A stretch of DNA of 64,000 nt, from the NCBI GenBank assembly GCA_963719085.1, contig CAVRAL010000004.1:704001-768000 (forward strand), in the 5' to 3' direction. Positions within the stretch are counted from its first letter, which is position 1; each line of letters opens with the position of its first letter. This stretch comes from a candidate division FCPU426 bacterium. Its GTDB lineage: Bacteria; Oederibacteriota; Muellerivitia; Muellerivitales; Muellerivitaceae. Under the pieces are notes generated by a model. The model had not been told where the DNA came from. It was given only the letters and a program-made list of their open reading frames with translations, and did not search any database. The position numbers and the translations under genes are program-made. Of this stretch, positions 12,701 through 41,925 are shown piece by piece.

Positions 12701-13032
12701 GCTTGAAAAACGGACCCTGTCTTAAGCGTTCGGCCGGCGGCTTCCTTTAAAACCCAGGGCGTCAAAACCTCGGGCAAAACTTGCGATCCTTCGGCCAGAA
12801 TTTTTTCCTGGGTGAAGTCCCCTAAGTAATGGTGCAAGGTATGGACTTGGGTATTGAATACGGATTCCTGTTTTTCGGCCAACACCCGTTTTAAATGGCC
12901 GACCAAAAGAACGTTGGGTACCAGAATGAGCAAGGGTCCCAGGGGATCTTGGGCGCGGTGCGCCGCGTAAGCTTGCGCCAGTTTTTCCTCGAGAAAGGGC
13001 TGATAGGGTCCGAGATAAAGGGAAAAACTCAT
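9742..13032 (-). CDS. addB: AddB-type inactive-helicase/PD-(D/E)XK nuclease with Fe-S staple
   Basis: ACPLRY..GFIDRVD..VVDYKTG..QLPFY..CARCDYRSLC; directly upstream of addA. Confidence 0.88.
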   Translation of the reverse strand: MSFSLYLGPYQPFLEEKLAQAYAAHRAQDPLGPLLILVPNVLLVGHLKRVLAEKQESVFNTQVHTLHHYLGDFTQEKILAEGSQVLPEVLTPWVLKEAAGRTLKTGSVFQAVRETPGFYRALRKTLAEIREGLFNSESLKSLAAFGKKTGDRKLRRFSRKAAELAALLESYQGLKAKGQFLDREDLYFKALEVAPAGAGAVFIYGFYDATPLQKKVLLHLAHSPSSRWFVPYEDHPAFEYAKPFVEWAKDLGRVIEEGHFAPETPSPLSRLKNHLFRESSLASENPDIEEPFDVSDFKIFLCPGESREGKEIARGILSQAEAGSLALNEGAVLLRDPESYRKILPQAFEDQKIPLAKPLPGPLLETLEGKALLSLLDCYLRGFPREETLNFLSMPNLVSDAFEVREEDWNPSAWDGISREAKVVEGRVEWRRRLLAWKKNKRREMLREKEEFPAGLEAAESFQKVLESLFKAGDAFRKMKDWSGKAGVLKEMVQKVMKADTEPAASRRKAIVALLENFALFSHFFSKALPVDEFRAVLAALLQETKNPQEPAGPNGVPLYDLMQARGVSFELVALPGLVEKSIPRLVRQDPLLLDIEREEINRQARALQNSALAKAKQGAFNFDAHLPEPSHRMALKKEGALEERLLFLLAVRSARKALILTAPSLNPLTGSPRTPSLYLFEAAEAVTGKRLFRLEEAGGFVKTLPVQDWAKPDLAHCADELERLLTAFQQARFGSPAAALALAKERPFYFEGAKLLKQRQAFPVFTAYDGKISGPAARKILREKDSPRLRAVSASRLETFAACPLRYFYKYVLRLTVIPEPDRVLQLEGADRGQLMHGILEETLERGLKEKWFEKKKVPQAEALSALDEIRDKHFERFTKEGVTGAPALWIWEQGRIKEDLKEVLEKILEDPEWKPVELEAAFGSSTAAKDAGTPVSFPLEGGEIKLQGFIDRVDEARDGSAFRVVDYKTGSDTGFSDQKLKAGTKLQLPFYLWALQQMRPQKPAKTALYDFITRKGKYRQVVYESENPQALQKTLLKVIQPVVESVETGLFPAAGKDCARCDYRSLCGPGAAERGERKAQDPAMRPYYQLEEIE

Positions 13033-15758: not shown

Positions 15759-17924
15759 ATGCAACAAATTCAAGTCGCCCTCGTTCCCCCGGTTCAACAA
15801 TCTTTCTTGGTGCAGCTGGCCCGTGATTTCCGCTCGGCCTTGAGCTATCTTTCGTTTTATTCCAGCGACAGCCCCTTTGTGGTGGGCGCCATCCGCAAGC
15901 TTCACAAAGATTTACAACGGCTCCTCAATACGGTGAATCCATTGGTGCTTTACCGGCAGGATGGATCGCTTTTCGCCAACGGTTCGGCGCTCAATGAAAC
16001 CGGGGATCTGTTGAAAATTTTCGAGGAAAAAAAATGGGATGCGGTGCTTATTGAAAACGGCCTGGCTTACAACGAATGGGTCTCCTGGCTGCGCCATATG
16101 GCTTTTCCCTTCGAGGAAAATCAAAGTCAAAGTGTTCCTTGGGAGCACTTGCGCCAAATTGAGTTGACCGATTTTATTTTGGAAGAAGCGCCGGCGGCCG
16201 CCTTCGTGGAAGTGCCCGAGGTCACGGCCGTGAACGCGGTGGACATCGCGTTGGAAGCCATCGCCGCCGAATTGCCCGCCGCGCCGACCGAAGAGGACAA
16301 TATTAAAGTCGAGGAGGCCTTCTCGCCCGAATCGCTTCAACCCAATTTATCCGGGGCCCAAATGGAAGAAGTCCCCGCCGCCGCCGAATCCATCCCGGCG
16401 CCGGCGGCCGAAAATCAACCCGCTCAATCCAGCGAAGCGCTTGGCGCGGCCCTTTTGGCCACCGTGGCCGAGGCCTGGCACTTTTCCCGCCTCCTCAAAA
16501 AAACGCCGCGGGAAACCGATGAAAAACTCGCTTTGGATAAAGCGAATTCCCAATTTTTCAACCATCTGTTGGATCGGTTGGATACCGCTTCTCCGGACTT
16601 GAAGGGCATTGTCCAATGGTTCCGCACGTCCCAAGGCGATGTGGTGGACAACGACGCGGTCTTGGCCATGGTGCCTTTGATGGAAATCGCGATTCATCAC
16701 CAGTGGACCGTGGTTCTTTTTGATCCGGCCACCGAAGGCCTGGTGAATGACTGCTTGGGCTTGTGGGGCGCCCAAGGCAATCAGGAACTGGTGGAAAAAA
16801 CCGTGACCGCCTTAGCCGAGGGGCTCAACCGCACCGAATCCGAACGGCGCATCGCCTTGACCCATTTGATGGATGCCCGGCCCTGGGTGCATGATCCGGC
16901 CCTTTTGGGAAAAGTTTTGGAGCAGCTTTGCCATTTACTCAGCGCTGAAAAAAATCCGGGCGTCTACCAAAGCGCCCTGCTTTCGGCTTGGGACTTGGTG
17001 GAACCCGCCCTCGAGACCAACAACGAAAACTCGGCCCTGAGCCTTTTATCCACCCTTCATTTTCACGCGGATGACGATGAGCCCTCGTCCGAGTTCCCGG
17101 AAAGGGCTTCCATCGCCCGGCATTGGCTTTTTGAGCGCTCCAATCCCGATCTCATTCGCCGCATGGCCGCTTGCGCCTATCAAGCCGGCCGGCTGGATCA
17201 TTTCCCCCTTTTAGGCGAGATGGCCGCGCCGCTTTTGCTCGAGGACTATCAAAACGCCGAACCGGACGAAAAGGGGATGCTTTTGGAACTTTTCGCCGAG
17301 ATGAGCGATCCCTTGCGCTCGGTCTTGACTGAGCGGGTCGCCGATCTGGAGACGCCCGAGGATCTGCGTTTGCTGATGCCGGTTTTAAAAACCGCCGGCA
17401 TGGACGCCGTTCTGTCCTTCCAGCTGTCCCCCTGGTTTTCCAGGGGCGACCGGGAATTTAAACTGAACCTGATCGGTTTGATTGAGCAGATCGGAAACTC
17501 CGAGGGAGGTCCCGCCCTTCGTCTGGCGCTTTTTGACGATTCGGAGGAGATTGCCTCGGAAGCCGCCAAGGTCCTGGGCAAGATCGGCTTCACGCCCGCC
17601 GGGCCGGTTCTCATTAAGGCTTTGAAGCTTCGGCAAAGCCGCGGACCTGACCATGAGCAATTTTCCATCGAGGTTTGCCGGGCGCTGGGCCATTTGGGAC
17701 AGCCGGAGAATATTTCCTTTTTAGAGGAGATGGCCAAGAAAAAATCCCTCTTCCGGGGAGCCAACGCGCCCTTGCCGGTGAGGCTGGCCGCCATCGAGGC
17801 TTTAGGGGAGATCAATCAACCCGCGGTCTGGGAATTTTTTGAGTCTTTGGCCGCCGAAAAAAATCCGGAACTTCAACAAACTTTGGACAAGATCATCCAC
17901 TCCAAGGCCGCTCAAGCGGTTTAA
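15759..17924 (+). CDS. HEAT-repeat protein with acidic Ala/Pro/Glu-rich linker
   Basis: C-terminal repeats (AAKVLGKIG, CRALGHLG, VRLAAIEALG); AAGGAG RBS. Confidence 0.75.
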   Translation: MQQIQVALVPPVQQSFLVQLARDFRSALSYLSFYSSDSPFVVGAIRKLHKDLQRLLNTVNPLVLYRQDGSLFANGSALNETGDLLKIFEEKKWDAVLIENGLAYNEWVSWLRHMAFPFEENQSQSVPWEHLRQIELTDFILEEAPAAAFVEVPEVTAVNAVDIALEAIAAELPAAPTEEDNIKVEEAFSPESLQPNLSGAQMEEVPAAAESIPAPAAENQPAQSSEALGAALLATVAEAWHFSRLLKKTPRETDEKLALDKANSQFFNHLLDRLDTASPDLKGIVQWFRTSQGDVVDNDAVLAMVPLMEIAIHHQWTVVLFDPATEGLVNDCLGLWGAQGNQELVEKTVTALAEGLNRTESERRIALTHLMDARPWVHDPALLGKVLEQLCHLLSAEKNPGVYQSALLSAWDLVEPALETNNENSALSLLSTLHFHADDDEPSSEFPERASIARHWLFERSNPDLIRRMAACAYQAGRLDHFPLLGEMAAPLLLEDYQNAEPDEKGMLLELFAEMSDPLRSVLTERVADLETPEDLRLLMPVLKTAGMDAVLSFQLSPWFSRGDREFKLNLIGLIEQIGNSEGGPALRLALFDDSEEIASEAAKVLGKIGFTPAGPVLIKALKLRQSRGPDHEQFSIEVCRALGHLGQPENISFLEEMAKKKSLFRGANAPLPVRLAAIEALGEINQPAVWEFFESLAAEKNPELQQTLDKIIHSKAAQAV

Positions 17925-17970: not shown

Positions 17971-18008
17971 AAACCCCTTTCGTCCCAAGACGAAAGGGGT
18001 TTATTTTT
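17971..18008. terminator. Probable bidirectional intrinsic terminator between convergent genes
   Basis: AAACCCCTTTCGTC-ccaa-GACGAAAGGGGTTT perfect stem followed by T-rich run. Confidence 0.8.
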
Positions 18009-19276
18009 TAGTTTTCGGCCAACAACCTTTCCCACATATTTTCGTTCAATAAAATCCGATGAAGAAAATCCTGGTCCCCCGCGGACGGAGGATGGGAAAG
18101 CGGATTGGCCGGAATCCGAAGGGTAAAAATCGTTCCGCGCCCGGGTTCGGGGCCGGTTGAGGCCTCAATTTTTCCGCCGTGGTGATAAACGATGAAAAAG
18201 CAAGTCATCAAGTGAAGCCCGAAATCCTGGGGATTATGGCTGCGGACAAAAAACGGGTCAAAGACCGACTGCAGGGCCTCCGAGGACAATCCGGGACCAT
18301 TGTCGGACAATTGAATCTCGATTTCCGCCGGGCCCTGCGCCGGGCCTACCGCTTTGGCTGAAATTTTAACCTCTCCCCCTTCGGGCAGGTTCGCGGACTC
18401 ATCCTCCAAAAGAAGCTCGAAGAGACGATGAAACTTGGCGCCGTCCACTTTCATGAGGGGCAACTGGGCCGAAACCAAATTCTCGACTTTAATTTTTCGT
18501 TTGGCGAGGGAAGATTCGAGTTTTTTCAAGCTCTCATTCACCACGTCCTGGAGCTTCACTTCATCCGGAAAATCATATTTCGGTTTCTCGGAGGCTTCCC
18601 ATAAATCGCTCAGAAGGAACGCCATCTTGTCCATTTGGCTTTGAACTTTTTTATAATAATCCTTCCAAAAGTCGGGATTACGCAACTGTTCCAAGTCAAT
18701 GTTCTCTTCTTTTAGTTTCTTCGGCGCCAGATCCAAGAATGTCTTCACCGCCACCATGGAGTTGCGGATATGGTGGCTTAAGCCGGTGGCCAAAATCCCC
18801 AAACTTAAAATACGGTCCGTCATCATCGTGTTGTGAAGCACGGACATTTTTTCACGCAATAACTGGTCCCGCTCGTTTTGAACGATGAAAAATTCAATGC
18901 CGCGACGCAGGGTATTCTCCAATTGGGGAATATCCCAAGGTTTGGTCACGTATTTATAGATCGCGCCCGTGTTGACCGCCTCAATGGCAGTTTCCAGGTC
19001 CGAATAGGCGGTCACCAATATCCGCAAGATCCGGGGATTGAGCTGACGGGCTTTTTCCAGAAACTGAATTCCCTTTTCCCCCGGCATACGCTGGTCCGTC
19101 ATCAGGACCGCTGTTTTATCCAAGTTCTCTTTAAGAATCCGAAATCCCTCATCGGCGCTGGGCGCCGTCAGGATGGGAAACTTATCCCCGAAGGTTTGGC
19201 GGAAATATTTGAGGGACTTTTCCTCATCATCCACGTAAAGCACATAATATTTTTTGTAATCGTAAAACGCGTCCAT
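18008..19276 (-). CDS. Receiver plus degenerate histidine-kinase protein (PhcR-like)
   Basis: REC (YVDDEE, MTDQRMP, TKPW), H-box GLSHHIRNS, DNGPG, FDPFF; no DNA-binding domain; AAGGAG RBS before ATG 19276. Confidence 0.85.
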   Translation of the reverse strand: MDAFYDYKKYYVLYVDDEEKSLKYFRQTFGDKFPILTAPSADEGFRILKENLDKTAVLMTDQRMPGEKGIQFLEKARQLNPRILRILVTAYSDLETAIEAVNTGAIYKYVTKPWDIPQLENTLRRGIEFFIVQNERDQLLREKMSVLHNTMMTDRILSLGILATGLSHHIRNSMVAVKTFLDLAPKKLKEENIDLEQLRNPDFWKDYYKKVQSQMDKMAFLLSDLWEASEKPKYDFPDEVKLQDVVNESLKKLESSLAKRKIKVENLVSAQLPLMKVDGAKFHRLFELLLEDESANLPEGGEVKISAKAVGPAQGPAEIEIQLSDNGPGLSSEALQSVFDPFFVRSHNPQDFGLHLMTCFFIVYHHGGKIEASTGPEPGRGTIFTLRIPANPLSHPPSAGDQDFLHRILLNENMWERLLAEN

Positions 19277-19292
19277 GATCGTCTCCTTCAAG

Positions 19293-21962
19293 CTAGGCTG
19301 TTTTTTCTTCCGCCCGCGCGGGCAAATCGAGCGTAAATTCCGCCCCATTTCCCTTTTCACTTCTGACCGAAATCCGGCCTTCTTGTTCCTGCAAGATCCT
19401 AAAACAAAGGCTCAGCCCCAATCCCATTCCTTGCCCGACGTCTTTGGTGGTAAAAAAAGGATCAAAAATCTTATCCATGACTTGCGGGTCGATCCCCGCC
19501 CCGTTGTCCCGGACTTTAATGAGAACCCGGTTGTTTTCTTCCCGGCTTTCAATGAAAAGCCGGGCTTCATCCTTCTCGAATTTCTTTTCTTTTAAGGCGT
19601 CGCCGGCGTTCTGGATCAAGTTGATGAAAACCTGCACCATTTTATTACTGTCCGCCAGCATGGTTTGTTCTTCCGGAATATTCACTTCCACTTTCACGTG
19701 GTCTTTTAACTCATGGCTTAAAAAACGTAAGGCCGTGTCCACAACCCCCTTCACCTCGATTAAATCCTTGCCCCCCCCCATGTGGGGATGGGTGAACGTC
19801 CGAAGGTCGGTGACGATCCGCTTCACCCTTTGGACACCGTCTTCGATATCGTCCAACACTTCCGTGTAAACCGGGCGTTCGGCTTCGGGCAGTTGGTCTT
19901 TTTTTGTTCTTAGAACATACAGGGCCTGGGCCGCATAGTTAAGCGGATTATTAATTTCATGGATAAGCCCGGCGCTTAAGCGGCCGAGTGAGGCCATTTT
20001 TTCATTTTGAACCAACTGTCCTTCGGTTTCTTTCAATTGTTCGAGTGTCGATTCCAGTGCATTTTTCTCGCGCGCCAAATCACGCTGATAATGGTGGGAT
20101 TCGACCAAATTTTTCACGCGAACGTGCAATTCGGTCGTGGAAAAAGGCTTTGACAAAAAATCGCTGGCTCCCGACTCAAGCGCCCGCATTTTGGTCTCAT
20201 CATCCGCGCGGGCCGTGAGCAAAATAATGGGGATTCCCTGGGTGGAAACCTGATTTTTGAGCTCCCGGCACACTTCAATACCGTCTTTTTCGGGCATCAT
20301 CATGTCGAGCAGGATTAAATCCGGGAGAAATTGACGGGATTTTTCCAAGGCTTGCTGCCCGTCCACGGCTTCAATGACCTCGTATTGTTTTTGAAGTTGG
20401 GTTTTTAAAAATCCCAGCATGTCCGGCTCATCATCGGCGATGAGCAATTTCGGCTTGCGGCCCAAGGCGTAAGAATCCGGCCGCAGGGTATCGGCCAAGG
20501 AGGCCATCGTGGGAAAAAGTTCGGCCCTTCGATAAAGTTTTGACAGCCATTCATCCGGTTCCGGGGCGCTGCCGGCCTGACCGGAGGCCTCCTTTTTAAT
20601 TTCCCGGGTTTCGCCTCCCGCGGCCGGCGCCGGAGCGGCTTCATAGGGCAGTTTCACGCTCATCACCGTGCCCTTTCCACTCTCGCTTTGAACGCTCACT
20701 TCGCCGCCTTGGACCTCGGTGAGTTCTTTGACCAACGCCAATCCGATTCCCGTTCCCTGGTATTTGCGGTTGGACGCAGAGTCCGCCTGCCAAAAACGGT
20801 CAAAAATAAACGGAAGATTTTGCGCGGCAATGCCCATACCCGTATCCCGAACTTGCAAAAGAAGAAATGCCTCCTTCTTCTCGGCCTTTAATTCCACCCG
20901 CCCGCCCGCGGGGGTAAACTTCAAGGCGTTAAAGGTGAGATTGAGCACAATTTTTTCCAGTTTATCCCGGTCCAAAAGAACCGTTTCCACTTCCGGAGCG
21001 ACCGTCGTGGTTAAGGCCACCCGCTTATCCCGGGCCACGGCGGATACGGATTGGGTTAGGCCCCGCAAAAACTCGGCTATCGCTACCGGCTCTTTTTTAA
21101 CTTCCATACGCCCGGATTCCAATTTCACTAAATCCAGTAAGTCATTGATCAATTTCAAAAGCCGCAAAGCGTTGCCATGCATAATCTTCAAGGTTCCCCG
21201 GGTTTCCTCGTCCATCCAATTGGCTTTGAGCTGCTGCAGGCTTTCCAAGGGGGCGATCAAAAGCGTTAAGGGCGTCCGCAGTTCGTGGCTGATATTGGCG
21301 AAAAATTGGCTTTTCATCCGGTCAAGCTCGACAAGTTTGCGGTTGTTTTCTTCCAAGGCTTTTTTGTTTTGATCCAACTCAAACCGCAGAACGAACTCCC
21401 GAATGCGCAGCCGATTCGTGAAATAAGTTCCGATGACCGCGAAAGTCGCGGTGAGAGACAAAAAATAAAGATTATTGAAAAAAATGCCGCCGAAATACTC
21501 GTTTCCGTGGCCCACACAAGCGGCCACGTAAATCATCAGGGTGGCGACACAAACAATTAAGGTTTCCTGGTAAGTCCAGGGAACCAGCAGGCAAAAAGCC
21601 ACCAAAACCACGTTTAAGCCGGCGTAGTAGGGAGACACCGCCCCTTCGGTCGAGTAAATCATCCAGGTGATCGCCCCCAGCGGCAACATGGGTAAAATCA
21701 GGAATAAAAGACGGTCATGCCGCAAACCCCAACGGCTGTAAAAAAGCCCGAAAAGCAATCCCACCAAAGCCGAACACATCAACCGAAGTTCCAAGAAATA
21801 ATGAACCTGCTTGGGATAAACCTGCATATCCAGCGAGATGCCCGCGGGCATGGCGATAATGGCGACCCAGCAGATGATCTTAAACAGGCGCCTTCGCTCG
21901 AGTTTGTTGTAGTCCTCGAACGCCTTTTTAACCTCGGGCTGATGGATCAGATCGTTGCTCAT
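19293..21962 (-). CDS. Membrane hybrid sensor kinase, TM-HisKA-HATPase-REC-HisKA-HATPase (PhcS-like input)
   Basis: About 6 N-terminal TM helices, ISHELRTPL, NALKFT, GTGIGL, REC (ADDEPD, LLDMMMP), IHEINNPL, GMGLGL. Confidence 0.9.
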   Translation of the reverse strand: MSNDLIHQPEVKKAFEDYNKLERRRLFKIICWVAIIAMPAGISLDMQVYPKQVHYFLELRLMCSALVGLLFGLFYSRWGLRHDRLLFLILPMLPLGAITWMIYSTEGAVSPYYAGLNVVLVAFCLLVPWTYQETLIVCVATLMIYVAACVGHGNEYFGGIFFNNLYFLSLTATFAVIGTYFTNRLRIREFVLRFELDQNKKALEENNRKLVELDRMKSQFFANISHELRTPLTLLIAPLESLQQLKANWMDEETRGTLKIMHGNALRLLKLINDLLDLVKLESGRMEVKKEPVAIAEFLRGLTQSVSAVARDKRVALTTTVAPEVETVLLDRDKLEKIVLNLTFNALKFTPAGGRVELKAEKKEAFLLLQVRDTGMGIAAQNLPFIFDRFWQADSASNRKYQGTGIGLALVKELTEVQGGEVSVQSESGKGTVMSVKLPYEAAPAPAAGGETREIKKEASGQAGSAPEPDEWLSKLYRRAELFPTMASLADTLRPDSYALGRKPKLLIADDEPDMLGFLKTQLQKQYEVIEAVDGQQALEKSRQFLPDLILLDMMMPEKDGIEVCRELKNQVSTQGIPIILLTARADDETKMRALESGASDFLSKPFSTTELHVRVKNLVESHHYQRDLAREKNALESTLEQLKETEGQLVQNEKMASLGRLSAGLIHEINNPLNYAAQALYVLRTKKDQLPEAERPVYTEVLDDIEDGVQRVKRIVTDLRTFTHPHMGGGKDLIEVKGVVDTALRFLSHELKDHVKVEVNIPEEQTMLADSNKMVQVFINLIQNAGDALKEKKFEKDEARLFIESREENNRVLIKVRDNGAGIDPQVMDKIFDPFFTTKDVGQGMGLGLSLCFRILQEQEGRISVRSEKGNGAEFTLDLPARAEEKTA

Positions 21963-23374
21963 TTTGGTTTTCTTATTTCAAGGAAAACATTAATGCCCGT
22001 AACATCCAAATTCACGGTCCAGGAACCCTCCGGAGCCGCTTCGGGTTTGACCAGTTTCATTTGCGCCGCGTCCCGGTAAATCAAATGCCATTCCATAAAA
22101 CTTTCCATGACATTTTGGAAAGGGTTCGAGGGGGTCACATTGGTGGCCAACAAAAGGCCTCCCGGCGCCAATAGACTGTAAAAATAATCCATCAACTTTT
22201 TGCAAATCCGATCCTCCAAATAATCGAACAAACCGGCGCAATAGATAAAATCGTAGGTTTTTTCCGGCGGCCCCGTGACAGGCTTGAAGGATTCTTTCAA
22301 AATGTGGTTGACGGACTTTTTGACCATCTTGATGGGGGTTCTTCGAAGATGGCGCCTTTTTATTTCTTCCAATGTTTTTCCGGTAAACGCCAAAGTCTCG
22401 TCGTTAAAATCCATTAATTCAAACTCGGCCTTGTCGCAAATCTCGTCTTGGATCAGAAAATTTTGAACTTCCTGCGCGGGGCCGCAAGCCATATTTAAAA
22501 ACGAGGCGACCCGTTTTTCCCGGGCGGCCCGCTCCGTTTCCTCGCTCAACTTCCGCACTAAATGCTTGATTCGATTTCGGTGGGCCTCGCAAGGCGGGGC
22601 GTTGACGAACCAAAAGTTGACGATTTTGGCGAACAGCGAACTGCCCTGAAGCGGATCGCCGAGCATCATGTTGACCATCTCATAATCACCGGCGTATCCC
22701 AGTGGCTTTTGAAAACTCCGGTAGACAAAGGGAGAACAAAGGACGATGGGGTGAATCTGCCGCCGGCTGTAGGAGCGGTGGGTGGACCGCACGTCGCTGG
22801 GTAAACTGGAAATGGTTTCCTCGAACCTTTCAAACAAAGAGCCGACGGCCGGGGTAATGGGGTTTTTTAATTCTTGGATCGAATCCCTCTCCATTTGGAT
22901 CCGGTCCCCCGAAGGCTCCGAGCGGATGCTTAATTCCACTTGTTCCAGCCAACGCCTCATGTCCAACAGGAAAGTTTGCATATCGGCGATGACAACCTTT
23001 AACTCATTGGAAATGAGATGGATTTTCTCCCATTCCTTCAAGAATTCGGCGAATTCGTTTTGAAGTTTGTCTTTTTGGTGGATGGAAGTGAAAATATCCA
23101 CATCCAGCCAGTTTTCTTCCAAGGTGCATTCGCAAACCAACAGGATGCCGGTGTTGACTAGATTGCTGACGACCGCCCGACCGGAATAAACCATCCGGTC
23201 ATTCATGATCATTCTAAAATCGGTTAAAACTTCAGATAATTGGAGAATGCTGTAAGGGTTGTAAACCTCAAAAACCACCGTGTAACGCGTGAGCCTGAGC
23301 AAGGTCGCTCGAAATTCCGTGCCTTGGCTGTTACGGCATACAATGAAAGTGTCTTTACCCGTTGAGATCGACAT
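21959..23374 (-). CDS. phcB: Class I SAM methyltransferase, PhcB-like (3-hydroxy fatty acid methyl ester synthase family)
   Basis: KPLGYAGDYEMVN, SAM motif NMACGPAQE, YDFIYCAGLFDY, LAPGG; followed by sensor and receiver-kinase as in phcBSR; family recognised from memory, not by search. Confidence 0.7.
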   Translation of the reverse strand: MSISTGKDTFIVCRNSQGTEFRATLLRLTRYTVVFEVYNPYSILQLSEVLTDFRMIMNDRMVYSGRAVVSNLVNTGILLVCECTLEENWLDVDIFTSIHQKDKLQNEFAEFLKEWEKIHLISNELKVVIADMQTFLLDMRRWLEQVELSIRSEPSGDRIQMERDSIQELKNPITPAVGSLFERFEETISSLPSDVRSTHRSYSRRQIHPIVLCSPFVYRSFQKPLGYAGDYEMVNMMLGDPLQGSSLFAKIVNFWFVNAPPCEAHRNRIKHLVRKLSEETERAAREKRVASFLNMACGPAQEVQNFLIQDEICDKAEFELMDFNDETLAFTGKTLEEIKRRHLRRTPIKMVKKSVNHILKESFKPVTGPPEKTYDFIYCAGLFDYLEDRICKKLMDYFYSLLAPGGLLLATNVTPSNPFQNVMESFMEWHLIYRDAAQMKLVKPEAAPEGSWTVNLDVTGINVFLEIRKPK

Positions 23375-23442
23375 GGATCCCTTTCCCCAAGGCTTAAAAT
23401 CGACTTATCTTACACGACTCTTAAAAAAAAAATCCCGAAGGC

Positions 23443-24990
23443 TCAGTTCCCCTTGAAAACCCGCAGCAAGGTTCCCAACCCATGTTGCGCGCTCACTCCC
23501 AATAGACCGCCCATCATGGCGCCGGCGATCCCCAATCCCCCCACATCCGCCCCCACCAAGGACAAACCCTTCAAGGGAGTCTTGGCTTTAAGGCTTTTAA
23601 GCCCGTATCGGCGGGGGGTTCCGGGATAACCATAAATGGCCCCTTTTCGGTGGCTGGTGAAATGTTCCACCGAAAGCGGAGTGGACAATTCGGCGAAAGC
23701 GATTTGGGCTCGAAAACCGGGAATACGGCTTTCCACAAAATCCAAAAGGGTTTCGGTGATTTTTTCCTTCAACCTTTGGTATTCGGGCCCCCGCCCCATC
23801 CACTTTTTCCCGCTCCAATCCTGAAAAACGGAATAATCCAGGGGCGCGATAATTTCCGCGGTCGGTCTCATCGCGGCCGGATCCTTCAGCCCCGGAAAAG
23901 AAAGATAACAAGACGAAGCCGTTCCCTGGGCCAATTGGTTTCGGTTTTCCCAAATAACATCGTGGTCAAAGCTGTTATAAATCCAAAAATTTTGACCGTG
24001 GATGCCCAAATGCTCACAACGGGATTTTAGCCCCAGATAAAGGGTCACAACGCCATAGGGAGAAACGGAGGAGATTTCCCTCATTTCATCCTCGTCGATC
24101 AACCCCGGCGGCAAAAGTTCTCCGTAAGTGGCTTGCGCTCCCGCGTCCGAATAGATCTCGGAGGCCTTTACCGTTCGGGGCCCCCGGGAATCTTCCAGCT
24201 CCACCCCGATGGCTTTTGTTCCTTCCATCAAAATCCGCCGTACCCGGCTTCTGACTTTCAGCTCGCCGCCGGCCTCTTGAACCACCTTGGCGATGGCCAA
24301 GCCTAAAGAGGCGCCCGAACCCACCGGATAATAACCCCCTTCGAGATAATGATGGGCGATGACCGCGTGGGTCCCCAGACTCGCCGATTGCGGAGGCAAA
24401 CCGTAGTCCCCCCATTGGGAGGCCACCACGCCTTTCAATCGTTGATCTTGAAACCGGTGATCCAGGTATTTCTTTAAAGGTTGAAGGGCCATTTCCCGGC
24501 ATCGTTGAAAATAATCTTTCTGTCTTTGGCTGCGGCCCGGTCCGGCGAACTGGCCCGGAAGATGGCGCGTCACTAAATCCAAATCACGGAAATAACGCCG
24601 AAGATTCGCTTTCTCCGCCGGAAAAACGCCGGCGAGTTTTTTTAAATAAGCTTCCCGGCCCGAGGGAACCTCAAATTTAAAACCCGGGTAGAGGAATGTT
24701 TCAAAAGGATCTTTCATTTGGACCCAATCGACGCCGCCGCCGGTAATGAAATCCATGGCCCGCCTTAAGGGATTGTTGAGATTCATCTCGCCGACATAAT
24801 GCAATCCCACGTCCCAATGGTAGCCGCCGGGACGTTGGAAGGTATGCGTAAAACCTCCCAGCTTGAAATGCTGTTCAAGCACTAAAACCCGGTAGCCTTT
24901 TATCCGGGCGAGAGCGGCGGCGGCCGCCAATCCGCCGATGCCCGAACCAATAACGATCGCGTCGTAGGAGTCCTCTTTTTCCATCGTCAC
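23443..24990 (-). CDS. FAD oxidoreductase, phytoene desaturase/all-trans-retinol saturase family
   Basis: IGSGIGG, VLEQH..GG..HTF, WDVGLHYVG, STPL..EHF..GAIYG; GTGA overlap with PPTase stop. Confidence 0.85.
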   Translation of the reverse strand: MTMEKEDSYDAIVIGSGIGGLAAAAALARIKGYRVLVLEQHFKLGGFTHTFQRPGGYHWDVGLHYVGEMNLNNPLRRAMDFITGGGVDWVQMKDPFETFLYPGFKFEVPSGREAYLKKLAGVFPAEKANLRRYFRDLDLVTRHLPGQFAGPGRSQRQKDYFQRCREMALQPLKKYLDHRFQDQRLKGVVASQWGDYGLPPQSASLGTHAVIAHHYLEGGYYPVGSGASLGLAIAKVVQEAGGELKVRSRVRRILMEGTKAIGVELEDSRGPRTVKASEIYSDAGAQATYGELLPPGLIDEDEMREISSVSPYGVVTLYLGLKSRCEHLGIHGQNFWIYNSFDHDVIWENRNQLAQGTASSCYLSFPGLKDPAAMRPTAEIIAPLDYSVFQDWSGKKWMGRGPEYQRLKEKITETLLDFVESRIPGFRAQIAFAELSTPLSVEHFTSHRKGAIYGYPGTPRRYGLKSLKAKTPLKGLSLVGADVGGLGIAGAMMGGLLGVSAQHGLGTLLRVFKGN

Positions 24991-25763
24991 CCGGCAGCCG
25001 CCGGCAAGGGGCTTAAATCCCGGGCACGATCATGACTCCTCGAATTCGAAAAAGAGATCAAGGATTCCGGATCCCAATCGTAAATTTGATATTGGCCGGG
25101 CGCGTCATTCTTATTTTTCGTGACCTGGGCCAAACAATAAACACCGCCTTCCAATGTCCGGGTGAAATATTCCCAGCCGCCCGATGAGGCGCGCTCGGGC
25201 GGGGGTAAAGGAACCGTAAATCCACTTAAAGAAAAACAAAGACCTTGCCCAAGGGCTTTGACCATCGCCTCTTTCATGGTGAATAACTGGAAAAAAAGGG
25301 GCCCTTGGGACTCAAGCGGTTGAGAACGAAGAAAGTCGATCTCCCGCGGGGAAAAATAGCGCTCGGCCAACCGCCGGCCCCGCTGAAAGGCTTCGGGGCT
25401 TAAATCAACTTTTTCAACATCAATACCCACTTCACACCAAGAAAATGAACAGGCGATCAATCCTTGGGTATGGGATAAATTAAACCGCAATCGGGTTTTC
25501 TCAAGAACCGGCTTTCCGCCTTCTTGAAAACCAAATCGGATCCGATGGGGGTCGCTTTTTAAGTAAAAGGCGGCGAGCTGCCGCAGGAGCAGACGGGACC
25601 ATAAATATTCCCGGCGCCGGCTTTCCAAGCCGAAATCGCCCATTCGCGACTGTTCGTCTTCCGATAAAAAAGAGGGACGATCGAGAACTGTTTCCTTTAT
25701 CCGAAACAGGTGGATATGAACCGCTTGGGGTTCCAAGGGGGCCGTTTCCCGTTCCAGTGTCAT
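24987..25763 (-). CDS. Sfp-type 4'-phosphopantetheinyl transferase
   Basis: GKP, FNLSHT, GIDVE, FTMKEA; AAGGAAGG RBS before ATG 25763 (alternative start 25796). Confidence 0.9.
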   Translation of the reverse strand: MTLERETAPLEPQAVHIHLFRIKETVLDRPSFLSEDEQSRMGDFGLESRRREYLWSRLLLRQLAAFYLKSDPHRIRFGFQEGGKPVLEKTRLRFNLSHTQGLIACSFSWCEVGIDVEKVDLSPEAFQRGRRLAERYFSPREIDFLRSQPLESQGPLFFQLFTMKEAMVKALGQGLCFSLSGFTVPLPPPERASSGGWEYFTRTLEGGVYCLAQVTKNKNDAPGQYQIYDWDPESLISFSNSRSHDRARDLSPLPAAAG

Positions 25764-25779
25764 AAATCCTTCCTTGATT

Positions 25780-26499
25780 TCAACCCATTCCCCCATCCAA
25801 AACGATCACGCTGCCAGTGAGATAATCCGGGGAGGACTCCGCCAGGAAAAAAACTATCTTGGAAACTTCTTCCACCTCGCAAAACCGGCGCAAGGGAACG
25901 GTTTGAAGAATGGCTTCCTTCGCCTGGGGTGATAACTTTTCAATCATGGGAGTGACAACTCCCCCCGGCGCCACCACATTGGCGATGACGCCGTAAGGCC
26001 CCGCTTCTTTGGCTAAGGCCTTGGTAAATCCGATAATGCCGGCTTTGGAAGCCGAATAATTGGCTTGGCCGGGAAGGCCGTGAATCCCGGAGATCGACGA
26101 GAGATTGATGACCCTCCCCTTTTTCTTTTTCAACATGTCGAAAACAAACCTGCGGGTGAGGTAAAAAACGCCGAAAAGATTCGTGTACAGCACATCCGTC
26201 CAATCCGAATCTTGCATGGAAAACAAAGGTTTGTCCCGGGTGATGCCGGCGTTGTTGACCAAAACGTCCACGCTTCCTTCTTCTTGAAGCACGGCCTTGC
26301 AAAATTGGTCGCAGGCTTCCCGATCCGCCACATCCAGGGCGTGGGCCTTTATTTTCCCCGCGAAACGGTTTTCCATTTCCCGCGCGGAGGCCTCATTGGA
26401 ATGAAAGGTAAAATGGACCTTCCATCCGGCGCCGGCGAATGTTTCAACCAAATTTTTGCCGATCCCCGAGGAGCCGCCCGAAATCACGATTTTTTTCAT
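25780..26499 (-). CDS. fabG: 3-oxoacyl-ACP reductase
   Basis: GGSSGIG, NNAGIT, GQANYSASK; ATG 26499 overlaps fabZ stop (ATGA). Confidence 0.9.
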   Translation of the reverse strand: MKKIVISGGSSGIGKNLVETFAGAGWKVHFTFHSNEASAREMENRFAGKIKAHALDVADREACDQFCKAVLQEEGSVDVLVNNAGITRDKPLFSMQDSDWTDVLYTNLFGVFYLTRRFVFDMLKKKKGRVINLSSISGIHGLPGQANYSASKAGIIGFTKALAKEAGPYGVIANVVAPGGVVTPMIEKLSPQAKEAILQTVPLRRFCEVEEVSKIVFFLAESSPDYLTGSVIVLDGGMG

Positions 26500-26948
26500 G
26501 GCGTTTTCAGCTTCCCGAATAAAAATTTCCCGGTTGCCACCACTTCGCCGTTCACCGTTCCTCTTCCCTCGATGATCCGGTTCGATCCGACGGCTTTGGT
26601 AATGGTCATATGAATCTCCAGTTGATCTCCCGGAACCAGGGGTTTCATAAATCGAAAGTCCGTCACCGCCCCGATCACGTCCACCACTCCCGGAAGCTCC
26701 CCTTCCTCGGTGATCCGGATCAAAATAGCCGCGGTTTGGGCGAAACATTCAATGGTGAGAACCCCCGGGAAAATCGGATTCCCGGGAAAATGACCGGGAA
26801 AATAGATTTCATTGACCGAGATATTTTTAATCGCCCGTAAGTCTTTTCCTTTTTCGAACGAAAGAACCCGATCCACCATCAAGACGGGAAAGCGTTGTTT
26901 TAAAAAAGATAGAACCGGAATTGGGCCCGATTCGTTTTCATTTGGCAC
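26496..26948 (-). CDS. fabZ: 3-hydroxyacyl-ACP dehydratase
   Basis: RFPVLMVDRV, KNISVNE, GHFPGNPIFPGVLTIE. Confidence 0.92.
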   Translation of the reverse strand: MPNENESGPIPVLSFLKQRFPVLMVDRVLSFEKGKDLRAIKNISVNEIYFPGHFPGNPIFPGVLTIECFAQTAAILIRITEEGELPGVVDVIGAVTDFRFMKPLVPGDQLEIHMTITKAVGSNRIIEGRGTVNGEVVATGKFLFGKLKTP

Positions 26949-27186
26949 GAAGCTGCTCTTCGATCATTTTGGCGGAGGAGTCAACCGTGGACATCTGGAC
27001 CAGTTGATCCGGGTCAATCGTGAGATTAAACTCGTTTTCCAATTTGGATAAAAACTCAAGGGCCCGCATGGAATCGTATTTCGCCATTTCGGTGAAGGAT
27101 TTGGACCCCGAAATATCCTCCGGCTGAAGGTCGAACATGCCGGCGATAATTCCCTTTATTTTCGATTGAATTTCAGTTAATTGCAT
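26938..27186 (-). CDS. Acyl carrier protein
   Basis: 82 aa acidic, YDSMRALE motif; AAAGGAG RBS before ATG 27186. Confidence 0.9.
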   Translation of the reverse strand: MQLTEIQSKIKGIIAGMFDLQPEDISGSKSFTEMAKYDSMRALEFLSKLENEFNLTIDPDQLVQMSTVDSSAKMIEEQLRAK

Positions 27187-27197
27187 TTTTTCTCCTT

Positions 27198-28097
27198 TTA
27201 TTTTTTGATTTTGATAAAAGATATTTTCCGTTCCGTTTTTGAGACGGCGGCGACCACTCCGCAAGAATAAGCGCTCGATAAAAAGTGATCCAACGAATCC
27301 GACCCGCCCAATCCCAGTTCTAAAACGGCGGGATTGGGTGAATGGCGGATCAGGCCTCTTGGAAAGCCGGATTCAAGAAAATGCTCTTCCGGAGCGCCCA
27401 ACCATTGCACGCCATTCCATAAAAGCTCAAACCGTTTTTGAAAACCGAGGGGTAGGCTTAAATCCCCCTTCAATTGCAGTGTGAAATAATCCACGACTTC
27501 AAATGAAGCGCCTTGGCTTGCGTCGCCGGAAGCTAATAAAAAGGTCGCGCCTTCCTTAAAAATCATCGCCGAATCGGGCGGCGCCGCCATGGATTTTAGA
27601 AAAGCCGGCGCCTTTTCCACCGCGCCCGCCAAACAAGTTTGAAAAAGCCCGCTGTTATAACCTTCCCAGGCAAAGCCAATGGCGTCCACGAACGAGGTGC
27701 TCCCATTAGTCAGGGTCACGTTCGGGCCTTTTAACTGAAACCATATTCCAATCCGGCTTCCGGCCGCGTTGGCCACGGTGTTGGGGAAATCCATGGGATT
27801 AACCGTATTCGGGCCGTTTAAAAGGGCTTGCGAGTCGAAATCCACCACGCTTTCCATCGAGGCAAAAGCGCTTCCGGCGATCACGGCGAAATTCCGGCGG
27901 GCGGCCTCTTCCAATCCCGCCGCCATTCCATTTAAAGCCCGTGCGGCGGCGATTCCCGCCAACAAGGACAAAGCGTCAATATATTTTGGGGAAACATCAG
28001 GAAAAGATTTTTGAAATTCGGCGGGCAAAGTCTCGATGGTTAACCCATTATTTCCCAGAAACGCGTTGCCTTGGCGGTGAATGATGAGCGGTTTCAA
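27198..28097 (-). CDS. Non-catalytic ketosynthase homologue / chain-length-factor-like protein
   Basis: NPMDFPNTVANAAG..KGPNVTL, catalytic Cys position reads NGSTS, no His motifs; TTG 28097 overlaps KS stop (TTGA). Confidence 0.75.
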   Translation of the reverse strand: MKPLIIHRQGNAFLGNNGLTIETLPAEFQKSFPDVSPKYIDALSLLAGIAAARALNGMAAGLEEAARRNFAVIAGSAFASMESVVDFDSQALLNGPNTVNPMDFPNTVANAAGSRIGIWFQLKGPNVTLTNGSTSFVDAIGFAWEGYNSGLFQTCLAGAVEKAPAFLKSMAAPPDSAMIFKEGATFLLASGDASQGASFEVVDYFTLQLKGDLSLPLGFQKRFELLWNGVQWLGAPEEHFLESGFPRGLIRHSPNPAVLELGLGGSDSLDHFLSSAYSCGVVAAVSKTERKISFIKIKK

Positions 28098-29314
28098 GAA
28101 GCGGCCTCCCGCTTCAATAAAACCAAACACGACGTATTCCCCCCAAAAGCGAAAGAATTCGAAAGGGCGACTTTTCCCTGAAAGGCACGGGATTGATTGG
28201 GCACACAGTCGGACACACAATTTTCATCCTGAATTTCCCAATTCATGGTCGGTAATAATCGGCCGCGATCCAAAGATAAACAAGTCATGACCGCTTCGAT
28301 GGCGCTGGCGGCTCCCATGGTATGGCCGATCATGGACTTGATGGAGTTCACGGGAATTTTACAATCGGTCCCGAATACTTTTTTAATGGCGAAAGATTCA
28401 GTTTTATCGTTCGCCGGGGTTCCGGTGCCGTGGGCCGAGATAAAATCAATTTTTTCGGGCGCGAGTTGAGCCTGAGCCAAAGCCTTGAGGATGCTTTCGT
28501 AAGCGCCGACTCCCTCGGGATGGGGCGAGGTCATATGAAAGGCGTCCATGCCCAATCCATAACCGCCAATTTCACAATAAATGTGCGCGCCGCGGGCCTT
28601 CGCCGTTTCTAAGTTTTCAAGCAAGAGAACTCCCACCCCCTCGCTTACCACCAATCCTTTTCGGTTGGCGGAAAAGGGCCGGCATTTATCCGGCGTCAGG
28701 GAAAGAAGGCGGTTGAATCCGGTAAAGGCCACGCGGGAAAAAACATCCACTCCCCCGCAAATGGCTAAGTCTAAATTGCCCTGGCGGATTTGCTCAAATC
28801 CCCAGCCAATCGCGTAATTGCCGGAAGCGCAGGCGTTGGAAAAAACCATGGCTTGTCCGCCCACGCCCAAAAAATCAAGGACGGAAAAAGCGATCCGGGA
28901 ACTTTGGACTTTATCAAAGCTATCCGGTTTTATTTCGGCTTGGCGGTTTTTGACATTGAATTCGGACATGCGTTCAGCCAATTGGACTTCGCCCATCGTG
29001 GTTCCAAAATAACTGCCGACCCGAAGGGAATCGATCTGCGCAGCGGTGAGCCCGGCGTCTCGGAGCGCTTCTTGCGTGGCCAGGATGGAGAAAGCCGCGG
29101 CGCCTTCATAGCGGCCCGGGTTTTCTTTTTCAAAAAGATCCAAACGTTGCCGCTGTTTAATTTCACCGCCCACCTTTACTCGATAAGGCGCCGGATCCAA
29201 GGATTGAAGCGGCTCAATCCCGATATCACCGCGAACCATGGCTTCCCAGCTCGTCGCCACGTCTTCCCCCAGAGGACAAATCACGCCGAGGCCTGTGACA
29301 GCGACTTTTTTCAT
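28094..29314 (-). CDS. fabF: Beta-ketoacyl-ACP synthase (FabF-like / type II PKS KS)
   Basis: VAVTGLG, NACASG, SAHGTGT, KSMIGH, SNSFAFGG; GGAG RBS before ATG 29314. Confidence 0.92.
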   Translation of the reverse strand: MKKVAVTGLGVICPLGEDVATSWEAMVRGDIGIEPLQSLDPAPYRVKVGGEIKQRQRLDLFEKENPGRYEGAAAFSILATQEALRDAGLTAAQIDSLRVGSYFGTTMGEVQLAERMSEFNVKNRQAEIKPDSFDKVQSSRIAFSVLDFLGVGGQAMVFSNACASGNYAIGWGFEQIRQGNLDLAICGGVDVFSRVAFTGFNRLLSLTPDKCRPFSANRKGLVVSEGVGVLLLENLETAKARGAHIYCEIGGYGLGMDAFHMTSPHPEGVGAYESILKALAQAQLAPEKIDFISAHGTGTPANDKTESFAIKKVFGTDCKIPVNSIKSMIGHTMGAASAIEAVMTCLSLDRGRLLPTMNWEIQDENCVSDCVPNQSRAFQGKVALSNSFAFGGNTSCLVLLKREAAS

Positions 29315-29500
29315 CCCGGGCTCCTTGCCAAACGCTTGAATCATTCGGGCCAAATTCGCTGATAATTTTCGCGATCAGTCAAAATTAGTTTCACGCTCAT
29401 CTTGCTTTCCCCGTCGGCTTTTAGCGCCATGACTCTTTCGTTGTTTTTCTGTCACTTTTAAGCGGGTTCGAAGTCCACGCCGCAGGTTTGTCTTCTAGAA

Positions 29501-29530
29501 ATGATAACTTGGTTTTCTTTTAAATTACAA
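29501..29530 (-). promoter_or_regulatory. Candidate sigma70 promoter of the KS-to-phcR cluster
   Basis: Minus strand TTGTAA-N18-TATCAT in an AT-rich intergenic region. Confidence 0.45.
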
Positions 29531-29644
29531 AAAAAGGTTGAAATGGGTATTTTTTACACAGAAGTTGTTTATCGCTATTTTTTTGTCAAAACTTGACTAA
29601 AAAATTGATAAAACAATTTTAATTTTGCATGTTTACTGTCAAAA

Positions 29645-30664
29645 CTAGAAAAGAGAAAGTTGGTCGGTTGAGGAAACCGGTTTCATTTTTTTCCGCCCGA
29701 TTTTTAGGCCCGGGGCTCCAAAAACCATGGGAGCCGCGGACTGAACCACCGAAGGCTGCGCGGGCCCTTCGCTTTCAACAAGAACCGGCGCAAGAATGGG
29801 AATCTCGGAGACGATTGGCGTCGATGAAGCCTCAACTTTTTTGCCTTTGCTTTCCAAATAAGCTTTTCCGCCGGCGCACACCGAAAGATACTCGCACCAC
29901 CCGCAAAGACGGCTGGGCTTGACCGGAAAGGCCTTCGCCTTCTCAATTTCCTGGATTTTGGAGACGTATTTTTTTTTCAACCACTCCACTTCTTTGGCGT
30001 TGCGCTCGCTGACCACCAAGTCCTTGTCAAAAGCCACAAAATGCCAAGCCAGCTTCACCTTGGCGCTGGAGCCGATCTTCGGGTTCTGGGAAAGCCCGAT
30101 CTGGTAAAGCGCCAATTGATCCTCGTACTTGGCGTCTTCCTCGCTCATTCGGCGGGAGCTGGTTTTATAGTCGTGGATCCAAAAGGTCCCCTCGCTGTCT
30201 TTTCCCAATCGATCGATGAAGCCCTGCATTTTATATCGGCCGTCCGGGTCCAAATTAAAAAGCACCTTCATCTCAATGCCTTGGGTTTGATCTTGGTCAA
30301 ACGGCTGATATTTATGGTAATAATTTTCAACAAAAAGCTGGCCCTTCTCGTAATAGTCTTCCAGGGTCTGGCCTTCGTGCACAATCCGGATGGGCGTGGG
30401 AAAGCCGCGATCCCGCTGTTTTTTCAGGGCTTCCTGCCATTTATGTTCCCAATGGTTTTTAAAATAATTCAACAGCTCGTTGACGGTGGGAACGCGCTCG
30501 GGAATTTGTTGATAAAGATATTCCATGCACTCATGGAAACGGGATCCCAAAAAAAGCTCAATGCCTTCCGCCACCGGCGGCGGTGTTTTATGGATATAGC
30601 GGAACTCAAATTGGGCGGGGCAGGTGAAGTAGGTATTGACGCGGGAGTAAGAATAAATCGTCAT
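29645..30664 (-). CDS. Stand-alone PD-(D/E)XK nuclease, RecB/Cas4-like with Fe-S cysteines
   Basis: SYS..YFTCPAQF, GFIDRL, IHDYKTS, QLALY, CGWCEYLSVC. Confidence 0.85.
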   Translation of the reverse strand: MTIYSYSRVNTYFTCPAQFEFRYIHKTPPPVAEGIELFLGSRFHECMEYLYQQIPERVPTVNELLNYFKNHWEHKWQEALKKQRDRGFPTPIRIVHEGQTLEDYYEKGQLFVENYYHKYQPFDQDQTQGIEMKVLFNLDPDGRYKMQGFIDRLGKDSEGTFWIHDYKTSSRRMSEEDAKYEDQLALYQIGLSQNPKIGSSAKVKLAWHFVAFDKDLVVSERNAKEVEWLKKKYVSKIQEIEKAKAFPVKPSRLCGWCEYLSVCAGGKAYLESKGKKVEASSTPIVSEIPILAPVLVESEGPAQPSVVQSAAPMVFGAPGLKIGRKKMKPVSSTDQLSLF

Positions 30665-37474: not shown

Positions 37475-38074
37475 TTACTTGCTCGATCCAGTCACCGAAA
37501 CTCCCGAAGCGGCCGGGGTCGTCGCCGCCAAGGGCGCGCTCGGCGCGGCGGATGGAGGCTGCAGGGGCGCGAAAATACGGGCCGCGCGGGCCTGCCAGTT
37601 TTTATTCCGGTTCACAATAACTCCGAAGAAATGAAAGCTAGCCGGTTGCGCCGCGGTGCCGTCCGGCGCGGTCATGCCGGTCAAGGTCGCGGTCGCGTCC
37701 ACCAAGTACATGTTCGGCATAATATAGGTGAAGGAGAAATCGCTGAAGGACTGCTGGGTTCCCTTCAAGGGGCCCGTCAAATCACCCGTAATGACCTGCA
37801 ACACGCCGTCATGGCCCTGGCCCTGCTGGCCCATGGGATTGATCAAGGTCGCGTCGGACGTGAAATAGGAAGCCACCGTATTCGCGTCGCCCGCGTTCCA
37901 AGCTTTCGCCAATCCATTAAAGGCTTTTTTAATCGCCTGTTCGTCGCCGGCACCCGTGTCTTTTTTCTTTTTAACCAGCGCGGAAGCGGCCGGGCTCGTC
38001 GTGGGAGTATTTTGGGCGTAAAGGGTTGAAGTAAAGCCAATCGCCAGCAAGAGAATGAATAACTTCTTCACCAT
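37475..38074 (-). CDS. Secreted SgcJ/DUF4440 NTF2-like protein
   Basis: Signal peptide MVKKLFILLL..LYA, DEQAI..AWNAGDA..YFTSDA; Ala/Pro/Thr tails. Confidence 0.75.
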   Translation of the reverse strand: MVKKLFILLLAIGFTSTLYAQNTPTTSPAASALVKKKKDTGAGDEQAIKKAFNGLAKAWNAGDANTVASYFTSDATLINPMGQQGQGHDGVLQVITGDLTGPLKGTQQSFSDFSFTYIMPNMYLVDATATLTGMTAPDGTAAQPASFHFFGVIVNRNKNWQARAARIFAPLQPPSAAPSAPLAATTPAASGVSVTGSSK

Positions 38075-38259
38075 AGGGTTCTTCTCCTCAATTATTTTTT
38101 TCCTGATCCAAAAACCAAAAGACGGCGCCATTATGGCCAGCCTTTCTTAAGCCTGTCAATAAACTCCCGAATAAGAGCCGCCCACTTTCACGCCCCGGTT
38201 CGTCTAACGTTATACTTGTGGAAACTTGGCTTTCCCTATCGCCACGAAAGGCCTACCCC

Positions 38260-40158: not shown

Positions 40159-40172
40159 TCTGTTTAACTGTT

Positions 40173-40595: not shown

Positions 40596-40608
40596 TTGGA
40601 CATGGGCG

Positions 40609-41817: not shown

Positions 41818-41925
41818 ACGGGTTTCCTTGCGTAAGTTCGAGGAATCAAGATACCTTGAAAAGTGGGCCATTTACAAGGGCCATGGAGACCGAAAAAGGC
41901 CGGGAGAAACCGGTTAAAAGCGCTT

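Follow-up and report, generated by a model that had tools for sequence, protein, structure and literature searches.

Gene content of the locus

The window analysed here, a stretch of 64,000 nucleotides (nt) of contig CAVRAL010000004.1 from a candidate division FCPU426 bacterium (host genome 3.04 Mb, 99% complete), carries ten intact, co-oriented open reading frames (ORFs) on the minus strand at 18008–29314, which join fatty-acid- and polyketide-type enzymes to genes resembling the Phc quorum-sensing system. In gene order, they encode a ketosynthase (KS; 28094–29314), a chain-length factor (CLF)-like inactive KS (27198–28097), an acyl carrier protein (ACP; 26938–27186), a FabZ-type dehydratase (DH; 26496–26948), a FabG-type ketoreductase (KR; 25780–26499), an Sfp/HetI-type phosphopantetheinyl transferase (PPTase; 24987–25796), a CrtI/retinol-saturase (RetSat)-like flavoprotein (23443–24990), a PhcB-family class I S-adenosylmethionine (SAM) methyltransferase (MT; 21959–23374), a membrane hybrid histidine kinase (HK; 19293–21962) and a soluble receiver (REC)-HK protein (18008–19276). 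Both the gene families and the tight spacing described in an earlier reading of this DNA (the original prediction) were confirmed, with successive junctions of −4, +11, −11, −4, −17, −4, +68, −4 and +16 nt (that is, −17 to +16 nt except for one 68-nt gap, directly before the MT gene). Below, the KS-to-PPTase genes are called the cassette.

An AT-rich leader or promoter region (29315–29644, minus strand) precedes the KS gene and holds one sigma-70-like site (29530–29501), which is within chance numbers. At the other end, a strong hairpin (17971–18002; −25.3 kcal/mol and z −3.3 on the operon strand) lies between the operon and a convergent HEAT-repeat gene. The closing terminator that had been proposed is supported as a structure, but its long U-tract serves the convergent gene and only about three U residues follow on the operon strand; it is probably a bidirectional terminator. 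Rfam gave zero matches within the window.

As a separate primary plsX-fabH-fabD-fabG-acpP-fabF operon lies elsewhere in the host genome (G000:C1:741948-747244; gene names from reading the translations), the cluster represents an extra set, and a duplicate of primary fatty acid synthesis (FAS) was rejected as an explanation. A carotenoid or aromatic polyketide synthase (PKS) cluster was likewise rejected, given that no matching families scored above cut-off, as was recent foreign DNA by composition, given that the GC content at third codon positions (0.53–0.66) is like that of the neighbouring genes.

Enzymes of the cassette

The KS (PF00109 and PF02801; triad C162/H295/H331) falls below the FabF cut-off (369 of 494 bits) and has its best Protein Data Bank (PDB) sequence match in 9s5h_B (E 2e-105; next match, 2e-81). 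Its partner, a protein of 299 amino acids (aa) with a TTG start that overlaps the KS stop, has Ser at the site of the absent catalytic Cys, matches the N-terminal KS domain only and finds its best PDB profile match in 9s5h_C (E 9e-30; next, 3e-11); its model (pLDDT 85) has the AntE and ishigamide CLF chains as top folds. The close CLF family is narrow, comprising 65 proteins before a drop to E 1e-8. Catalytic residues are also present in the dedicated ACP (PF00550; ATG start at 27186), in which S38 lies in the motif KYDSMRALEFL, invariant in an alignment of 14 orthologues, as well as in FabZ (H53/E67; NF000582 above cut-off; best PDB matches, entries named plain FabZ) and FabG (Y148/K152; NF009466 above cut-off). 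The PPTase matches PF01648 and PF22624, with NF042922 below cut-off (E 5e-29). The flavoprotein scores below all carotenoid-enzyme cut-offs and its Atlas clusters are named phytoene dehydrogenase and retinol 13,14-reductase. No enoyl reductase (ER) was found among the cluster genes; one of the host could act in trans.

Methyltransferase, sensor kinase and receiver protein

The MT, with a SAM-MT fold preceded by a β-rich N-terminal domain, is PhcB-like, as had been predicted: it matches a Cupriavidus taiwanensis protein end to end (38% over 466 aa, E 5e-115) and a Cupriavidus sp. HPC(L) protein named PhcB (40%), and many of its homologues bear the JGI name ‘EF 3-hydroxypalmitic acid methyl ester biosynthesis protein’. 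Its R22 is also present in the Cupriavidus protein; in Ralstonia PhcB, R22C is reported to change quorum-sensing responsiveness (PMC6989110), the equivalence of the two numberings being assumed. The N-terminal 95 residues (window 23090–23374) are 75–97% conserved in the family, above the catalytic part and regardless of the cassette; they gave no confident model (pLDDT below 50), and a weak lead points to PilZ (Atlas score 0.84, family on 27% of members). A predicted MT–ACP complex scored 0.01 and gave no answer. More distant and shorter relatives of the MT (approximately 25–28%) that lack the N-terminal part occur in 125 Rhizobium plasmid records, and a relative on a Pseudanabaena plasmid adjoins a sensor kinase gene.

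The hybrid kinase (889 aa) comprises a PhcS-type transmembrane (TM) sensor (residues ~1–195, with at least five hydrophobic segments in the protein) followed by HisKA(H226)-HATPase, REC(D553) and HisKA(H668)-HATPase domains (Pfam), all with intact motifs. When compared with a Janthinobacterium protein named PhcS and a Paraburkholderia sensor, the TM domain shows 28–34% identity (E 4e-21 and 4e-26) and the second, C-terminal kinase 36–37% (E 7e-52 and 7e-56). The likeness to PhcS thus holds for the membrane domain and the C-terminal kinase, but an extra HisKA-HATPase-REC module is inserted and the protein is not a plain PhcS. Membership of the Leptospira LvrAB family was rejected (326 of 1200 and 57 of 500 bits, with membrane segments present).

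The last gene had been read as a PhcR-like receiver-kinase. It does encode a receiver (D61) and a HisKA domain (H168; Pfam) without a DNA-binding domain, but its ATP-binding domain is degenerate (the N-box Asn is absent in the query and in the eight variants displayed), and it is most similar to the 344-aa product of the gene that closes a Paraburkholderia phc-like locus (38% over 206 aa), close in size to PhcQ (336–337 aa; PMC8578825). PhcQ is described as working through binding PhcA (PMC13320629). A single LysR match, at most a candidate for PhcA, was found in the host genome, approximately 58 kb away and below every NCBIfam cut-off.

Distribution of the operon and its parts

The best 80 of at least 592 phcB-like genome loci belong mostly to Verrucomicrobiota by record title, and a kinase is present in 78 of them. 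KS, CLF or ACP genes occur in none of the 80 (48 of which include at least 8 kb upstream); the MT–kinase–receiver triad itself is common in the absence of a cassette. A FadL/OMPP1-like channel gene is found in 38 of the 80 (L042–L121; for example, L061:8485-9831), often directly upstream; none was found in the host genome or its family loci.

Within the host family, the MT is encoded in 19 of 24 genomes. Among 20 fetched loci (19 from the family and one from the same order), the cassette lies directly 5′ of the MT gene in 9 and is absent from 11, 6 of which have the PD-(D/E)XK gene that lies 5′ of KS here directly before the MT gene. CLF orthologues occur in exactly those 9 genomes among 40 relatives. 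KS orthologues were detected in 12 of 30 family relatives (three more than the nine above), each of which also encodes the MT, with the cassette genes on the MT contig in 11 (the other is split by a contig end). Co-occurrence of KS-CLF-ACP with phcB homologues is thereby confirmed within the family. The original prediction could be contradicted by computation on two points, the PhcB-like nature of the MT and the joint occurrence of FAS-type and phc-like genes, and neither went against it. In 80 metagenome loci (not dereplicated against the genomes), true CLF orthologues occur in 13; the MT gene is present in all five that extend beyond the PPTase gene and, where there is one, the flavoprotein gene, and of the others one ends inside the flavoprotein gene and the rest earlier.

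The composition of the cassette region varies. The flavoprotein, listed in the original prediction among the cluster's genes, proved optional (6 of 13 cassette genomes); its orthologues in 3 of 40 relatives each lie within a cassette, and in L127 and G042 the gene stands between the MT and HK genes. An extra short-chain dehydrogenase/reductase (SDR) is present in four cassette genomes. In G008, a thioesterase replaces FabG (L023:9186-9977), and the MT and kinase genes are separated by 1.7 kb of inserted sequence whose short ORFs resemble one another and look lipoprotein-like (L023:12635-14367). The PPTase and MT genes of G020 and G021 overlap or are 17 nt apart. Two cassette-less relatives carry a family-2 glycosyltransferase gene in the cassette position before the MT gene (L033:2133-3341 and L036:2257-3414).

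Mosaic inheritance of the front half

With groups defined by gene content, a single branch separates the cassette genomes from all others in the MT tree (residues 96–471, 27 rows; 10 cassette rows, SH-like approximate likelihood ratio test (SH-aLRT) 100) and in the sensor-TM tree (residues 1–195, 26 rows, G010 omitted owing to a contig end; 9 cassette rows, SH-aLRT 97). The same grouping is rejected by the approximately unbiased (AU) test for the cytoplasmic kinase (23 rows, 4 omitted; p 4e-6), for REC-HK (21 rows, 6 omitted; p 2e-59) and for RpoB (24 rows, with no match in G004 and the fragmented G018 unused; p 7e-80), and a single insertion in one sublineage followed by vertical inheritance was rejected on these results. 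Genomes found later behaved in the same way: in the MT tree, three with the cassette fell inside the group and two without it fell outside, and in the sensor tree two fell inside, two outside and one was too short for inclusion (the cassette-less status of one of them, G044, comes from an 84% complete genome).

The boundaries of the exchanged tract are visible in comparison with G001, a cassette-less member of the same genus that is the nearest relative in RpoB and in both cytoplasmic proteins yet distant in MT and sensor. Identity to G001 is 61% in the catalytic part of the MT and 43% in the TM domain, compared with 79% in the cytoplasmic kinase and 87% in REC-HK, with the switch near kinase residue 200. 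The leader 5′ of KS is homologous to the region directly 5′ of the G001 MT gene (local alignment score 59, compared with at most 32 among 200 doublet-shuffled sequences), and eight other upstream regions aligned with it gave background scores. As the leader is shared and the switch lies near residue 200, the tract reaches from the leader through the sensor domain. The cassette, the MT and the membrane domain of the sensor have been exchanged between species as one unit, by either gain or replacement of the cassette.

A finer association is seen for the four SDR-containing cassettes, which group together in the MT (99.7) and TM (100) trees and not in the tree of the core enzymes (AU p 0.008). 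The overall pattern resembles that of Ralstonia, in which PhcB and PhcS trees are reported to split by signal type and PhcR and PhcQ to follow phylotype (PMC8578825, citing Kai 2015), and phcB and phcS to be under balancing selection (PMC6580516); in both cases, synthase and sensor vary together and the downstream receiver follows the species.

Proposed model and alternatives

These observations suggest a Phc-type signalling operon in which the identity of the signal is set by an exchangeable front half, and we place the probability that an unsaturated acyl chain, built by the cassette, is methylated by the MT and sensed by the adjacent kinase at roughly 60%. In this scenario, with the ten genes presumably co-transcribed, the PPTase would prime the private ACP, and the KS-CLF heterodimer would take malonyl units from primary metabolism, probably prime itself and extend the chain, which FabG and FabZ would process. 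As ER is absent from the cluster, double bonds are probably retained in the chain, and a 3-hydroxyl group may be kept as well. The optional flavoprotein (or the extra SDR in other strains) may edit the chain, which would then be freed as a free acid by a thioesterase (of the host here and cassette-encoded in G008), and the PhcB homologue would methylate the free carboxylate to yield a methyl ester. PhcB reportedly acts on free acids, in work attributed to Ujita from 2019. The ester may be sensed by the PhcS-type membrane domain, with phosphate relayed via the hybrid kinase to the receiver-pseudokinase, which would act by protein contact. The FadL-like channel genes in 38 of 80 other phcB-like loci also speak for a signalling role. 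The original prediction proposed that the signal may be a distinct, unsaturated or polyene methyl ester sensed by the neighbouring kinase; the pairing of cassette and MT is borne out by their co-occurrence and co-variation, and the product is a putative methyl ester that may act as a density signal.

Several points weigh against this model. The MT family does not need the cassette (0 of 80 best phcB-like loci have it and 11 of 20 fetched loci lack it), and the cassette encodes no thioesterase, FabD or FabH. In the 68-nt gap before the MT gene, a tiny UUCG hairpin followed by T10 could uncouple transcription, although its folding is no better than that of shuffled sequences (z +1.2). Phc comparisons used Cupriavidus, Janthinobacterium and Paraburkholderia proteins rather than Ralstonia sequences; the trees came from quick LG+G4 searches without bootstrap. 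The test of the SDR subgroup followed its appearance in earlier trees, and a single genus supplies two of the four members. The flavoprotein tracks neither the MT nor the sensor subtype (three changes), and co-inheritance of neighbours can come from physical linkage alone.

We consider it unlikely that the cassette, while using the phc promoter, serves to produce an independent lipid or polyene (for example, a pigment or membrane lipid), with the MT methylating an acid from primary FAS and the MT and sensor merely hitchhiking on one recombination tract. The triad lacks the cassette in most genomes, the cassette sits behind an old leader with a weak terminator-like element 5′ of the MT gene, and KS-CLF, ACP, KR and DH are all that a minimal set of the polyene type requires, as established for the ishigamide and aryl polyene systems. 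However, the cassette occurs with a non-cassette MT in 0 of 13 cases and with a non-cassette sensor in none in which the TM domain was recoverable, the extra SDR goes with the type of MT and sensor and not with that of the core enzymes, the flavoprotein gene stands between the MT and kinase genes in two loci, and G020 and G021 have PPTase and MT genes that overlap or are separated by 17 nt.

It appears improbable that the product acts over a short range or remains cell-bound, that is, that it is sensed as a membrane state or as a kin or neighbour signal rather than as a diffusible density signal. Allele swapping would fit kin recognition equally well, no FadL-like gene was found in the host genome or family loci, and no PhcA-type output was identified in the host genome (apart from the one sub-cut-off LysR match). 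Against this, methylation of a carboxylate generally favours diffusion. In the literature covered, every characterised PhcB is also described as making a secreted methyl ester (PMC6989110 and PMC8578825). Changed MT chemistry, such as C-methylation of the ACP-bound chain with a ligand that is not a methyl ester, is very improbable: seven MT positions are specific to cassette genomes, most cassettes lack a thioesterase and C-methyltransferases are among the MT fold matches, but cassette, non-cassette and three betaproteobacterial sequences share approximately 60 unchanged positions, including the SAM-binding region, and the G008 thioesterase fits a free-acid substrate.

Comparison with known systems

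The closest counterpart of the proposed signalling operon is phcBSRQ of the Ralstonia solanacearum complex and Cupriavidus (3-OH PAME and 3-OH MAME), with which it shares a full-length PhcB homologue and, directly downstream, a membrane sensor of PhcS type and a receiver lacking an output domain. It differs from phcBSRQ in adding a private KS-CLF-ACP-KR-DH-PPTase cassette with optional tailoring genes, in the 889-aa sensor with its extra kinase-receiver module, in having one receiver protein instead of PhcR and PhcQ, and in that PhcA was not identified in the host genome. With highly reducing type II PKSs (ishigamide Iga and aryl polyene Ape), the cassette shares an active KS and inactive CLF, ACP, KR and DH without ER, and its CLF resembles the Iga and Ant CLF chains in fold, whereas it has no starter-loading or transfer enzymes and the cluster closes with genes for a signal methyltransferase and its sensor. 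Leptospira LvrA-LvrB, the top NCBIfam match of the large kinase, likewise places a hybrid kinase before a receiver-kinase, neither with a DNA-binding domain; however, LvrA is soluble, with a PAS sensor and no membrane segment, and no synthase is described. Dedicated acyl-chain enzymes also set signal specificity in Rhizobium NodE/NodF and, according to a review, in Photorhabdus DarABC, but the final chemistry and receptors are unrelated and neither pairs KS-CLF with a PhcB-type methyltransferase.

The closest solved relatives of KS and CLF may come from ladderane Cluster I of anammox bacteria (amxFabF2/amxFabFmut, amxACP, amxFabZ, a phytoene-dehydrogenase homologue and a B12 radical SAM enzyme). 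The assignment of 9S5H as this heterodimer was made through residue numbering only, as the entry is absent from the listed fold-search matches and from the preprint main text as covered: by hand count, 13 of 14 numbered residues of Brocadia fulgida amxFabF2 fit chain B at offset +5, and three tunnel residues of amxFabFmut fit chain C at offset −1. The corresponding CLF residues F104, T107 and V108 are invariant across the CLF family. The heterodimer is reported to convert malonyl-ACP to acetoacetyl-ACP and to prefer C6–C8 probes (bioRxiv 10.64898/2026.05.19.726425), an activity that would explain the missing FabH here, and Cluster I is also described as encoding ACP, FabZ and a phytoene-dehydrogenase homologue (bioRxiv 10.64898/2026.05.19.726425; PMC2649909). 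The likeness of ACP, FabZ and flavoprotein is at family level only, none of the ten genes here encodes a cobalamin-dependent radical SAM enzyme, the CLF is much shorter (299 compared with 412 aa), and the operon has its own KR, PPTase, MT and sensor. Three further findings weigh against a special ladderane link: FabZ is closest in the PDB to ordinary FabZ entries, several unnamed environmental CLF-like proteins score as well or better, reaching 141 bits, compared with 107 for the 9S5H pairing (in different searches), and a distant KS-CLF group with a similar motif, and no MT, occupies 67 of the 80 metagenome loci. Members of this distant group (L135–L201; for example, L143:5991-10939) carry an FPNTV-like motif, often have an SDR and a REC-PilZ gene 5′ and show no MT match.

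It is a doubtful but conceivable extension that a Cluster I-type KS-CLF, with ACP, FabZ and a phytoene-dehydrogenase-like enzyme, was recruited to make a polyunsaturated methyl-ester signal, with lineages keeping private channels by swapping the tailoring gene, MT and sensor. If so, this small, self-contained operon would offer an expressible readout of the product of the KS-CLF class, bearing on the unsolved first steps of ladderane synthesis; the anammox KS/CLF likeness is, in any case, a possible handle on an enzyme class with an unsolved product.

In the literature covered (subscription papers lie mostly outside it), Ralstonia is the only genus in which Phc signalling has been characterised, and two signals are described there; quorum-sensing reviews, in the sections covered, name only 3-OH PAME and MAME (PMC11298618, PMC13532016 and PMC13220807), and none of the matches listed describes phcB with a dedicated KS-CLF cassette. 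The present results locate modules of Phc type across Verrucomicrobiota and in an uncultured family, and suggest a route to signal change in which a private type II PKS-like line is swapped together with the methyltransferase and sensor domain, pointing to a new and testable family of chemical signals. Natural alleles with and without the cassette in one genus provide matched pairs for finding the structure of the signal and the specificity residues of synthase and receptor.

Neighbouring genes and other features

The convergent gene that shares the terminator hairpin (window 15759–17924) encodes a 721-aa HEAT-repeat protein that matched no known family. On the other side, a PD-(D/E)XK nuclease-like gene (29645–30664) marks a conserved site 5′ of the operon, with or without the cassette. 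A 1,096-aa ORF at 9742–13032 has a C-terminal PD-(D/E)XK-like region and appears AddB-like by eye. Elsewhere in the host genome, a FabF-like gene (G000:C4:232806-234150) is present as two overlapping frames and is apparently frameshifted. The cumulative GC skew of the window turns from falling to rising at approximately 38000–42000.

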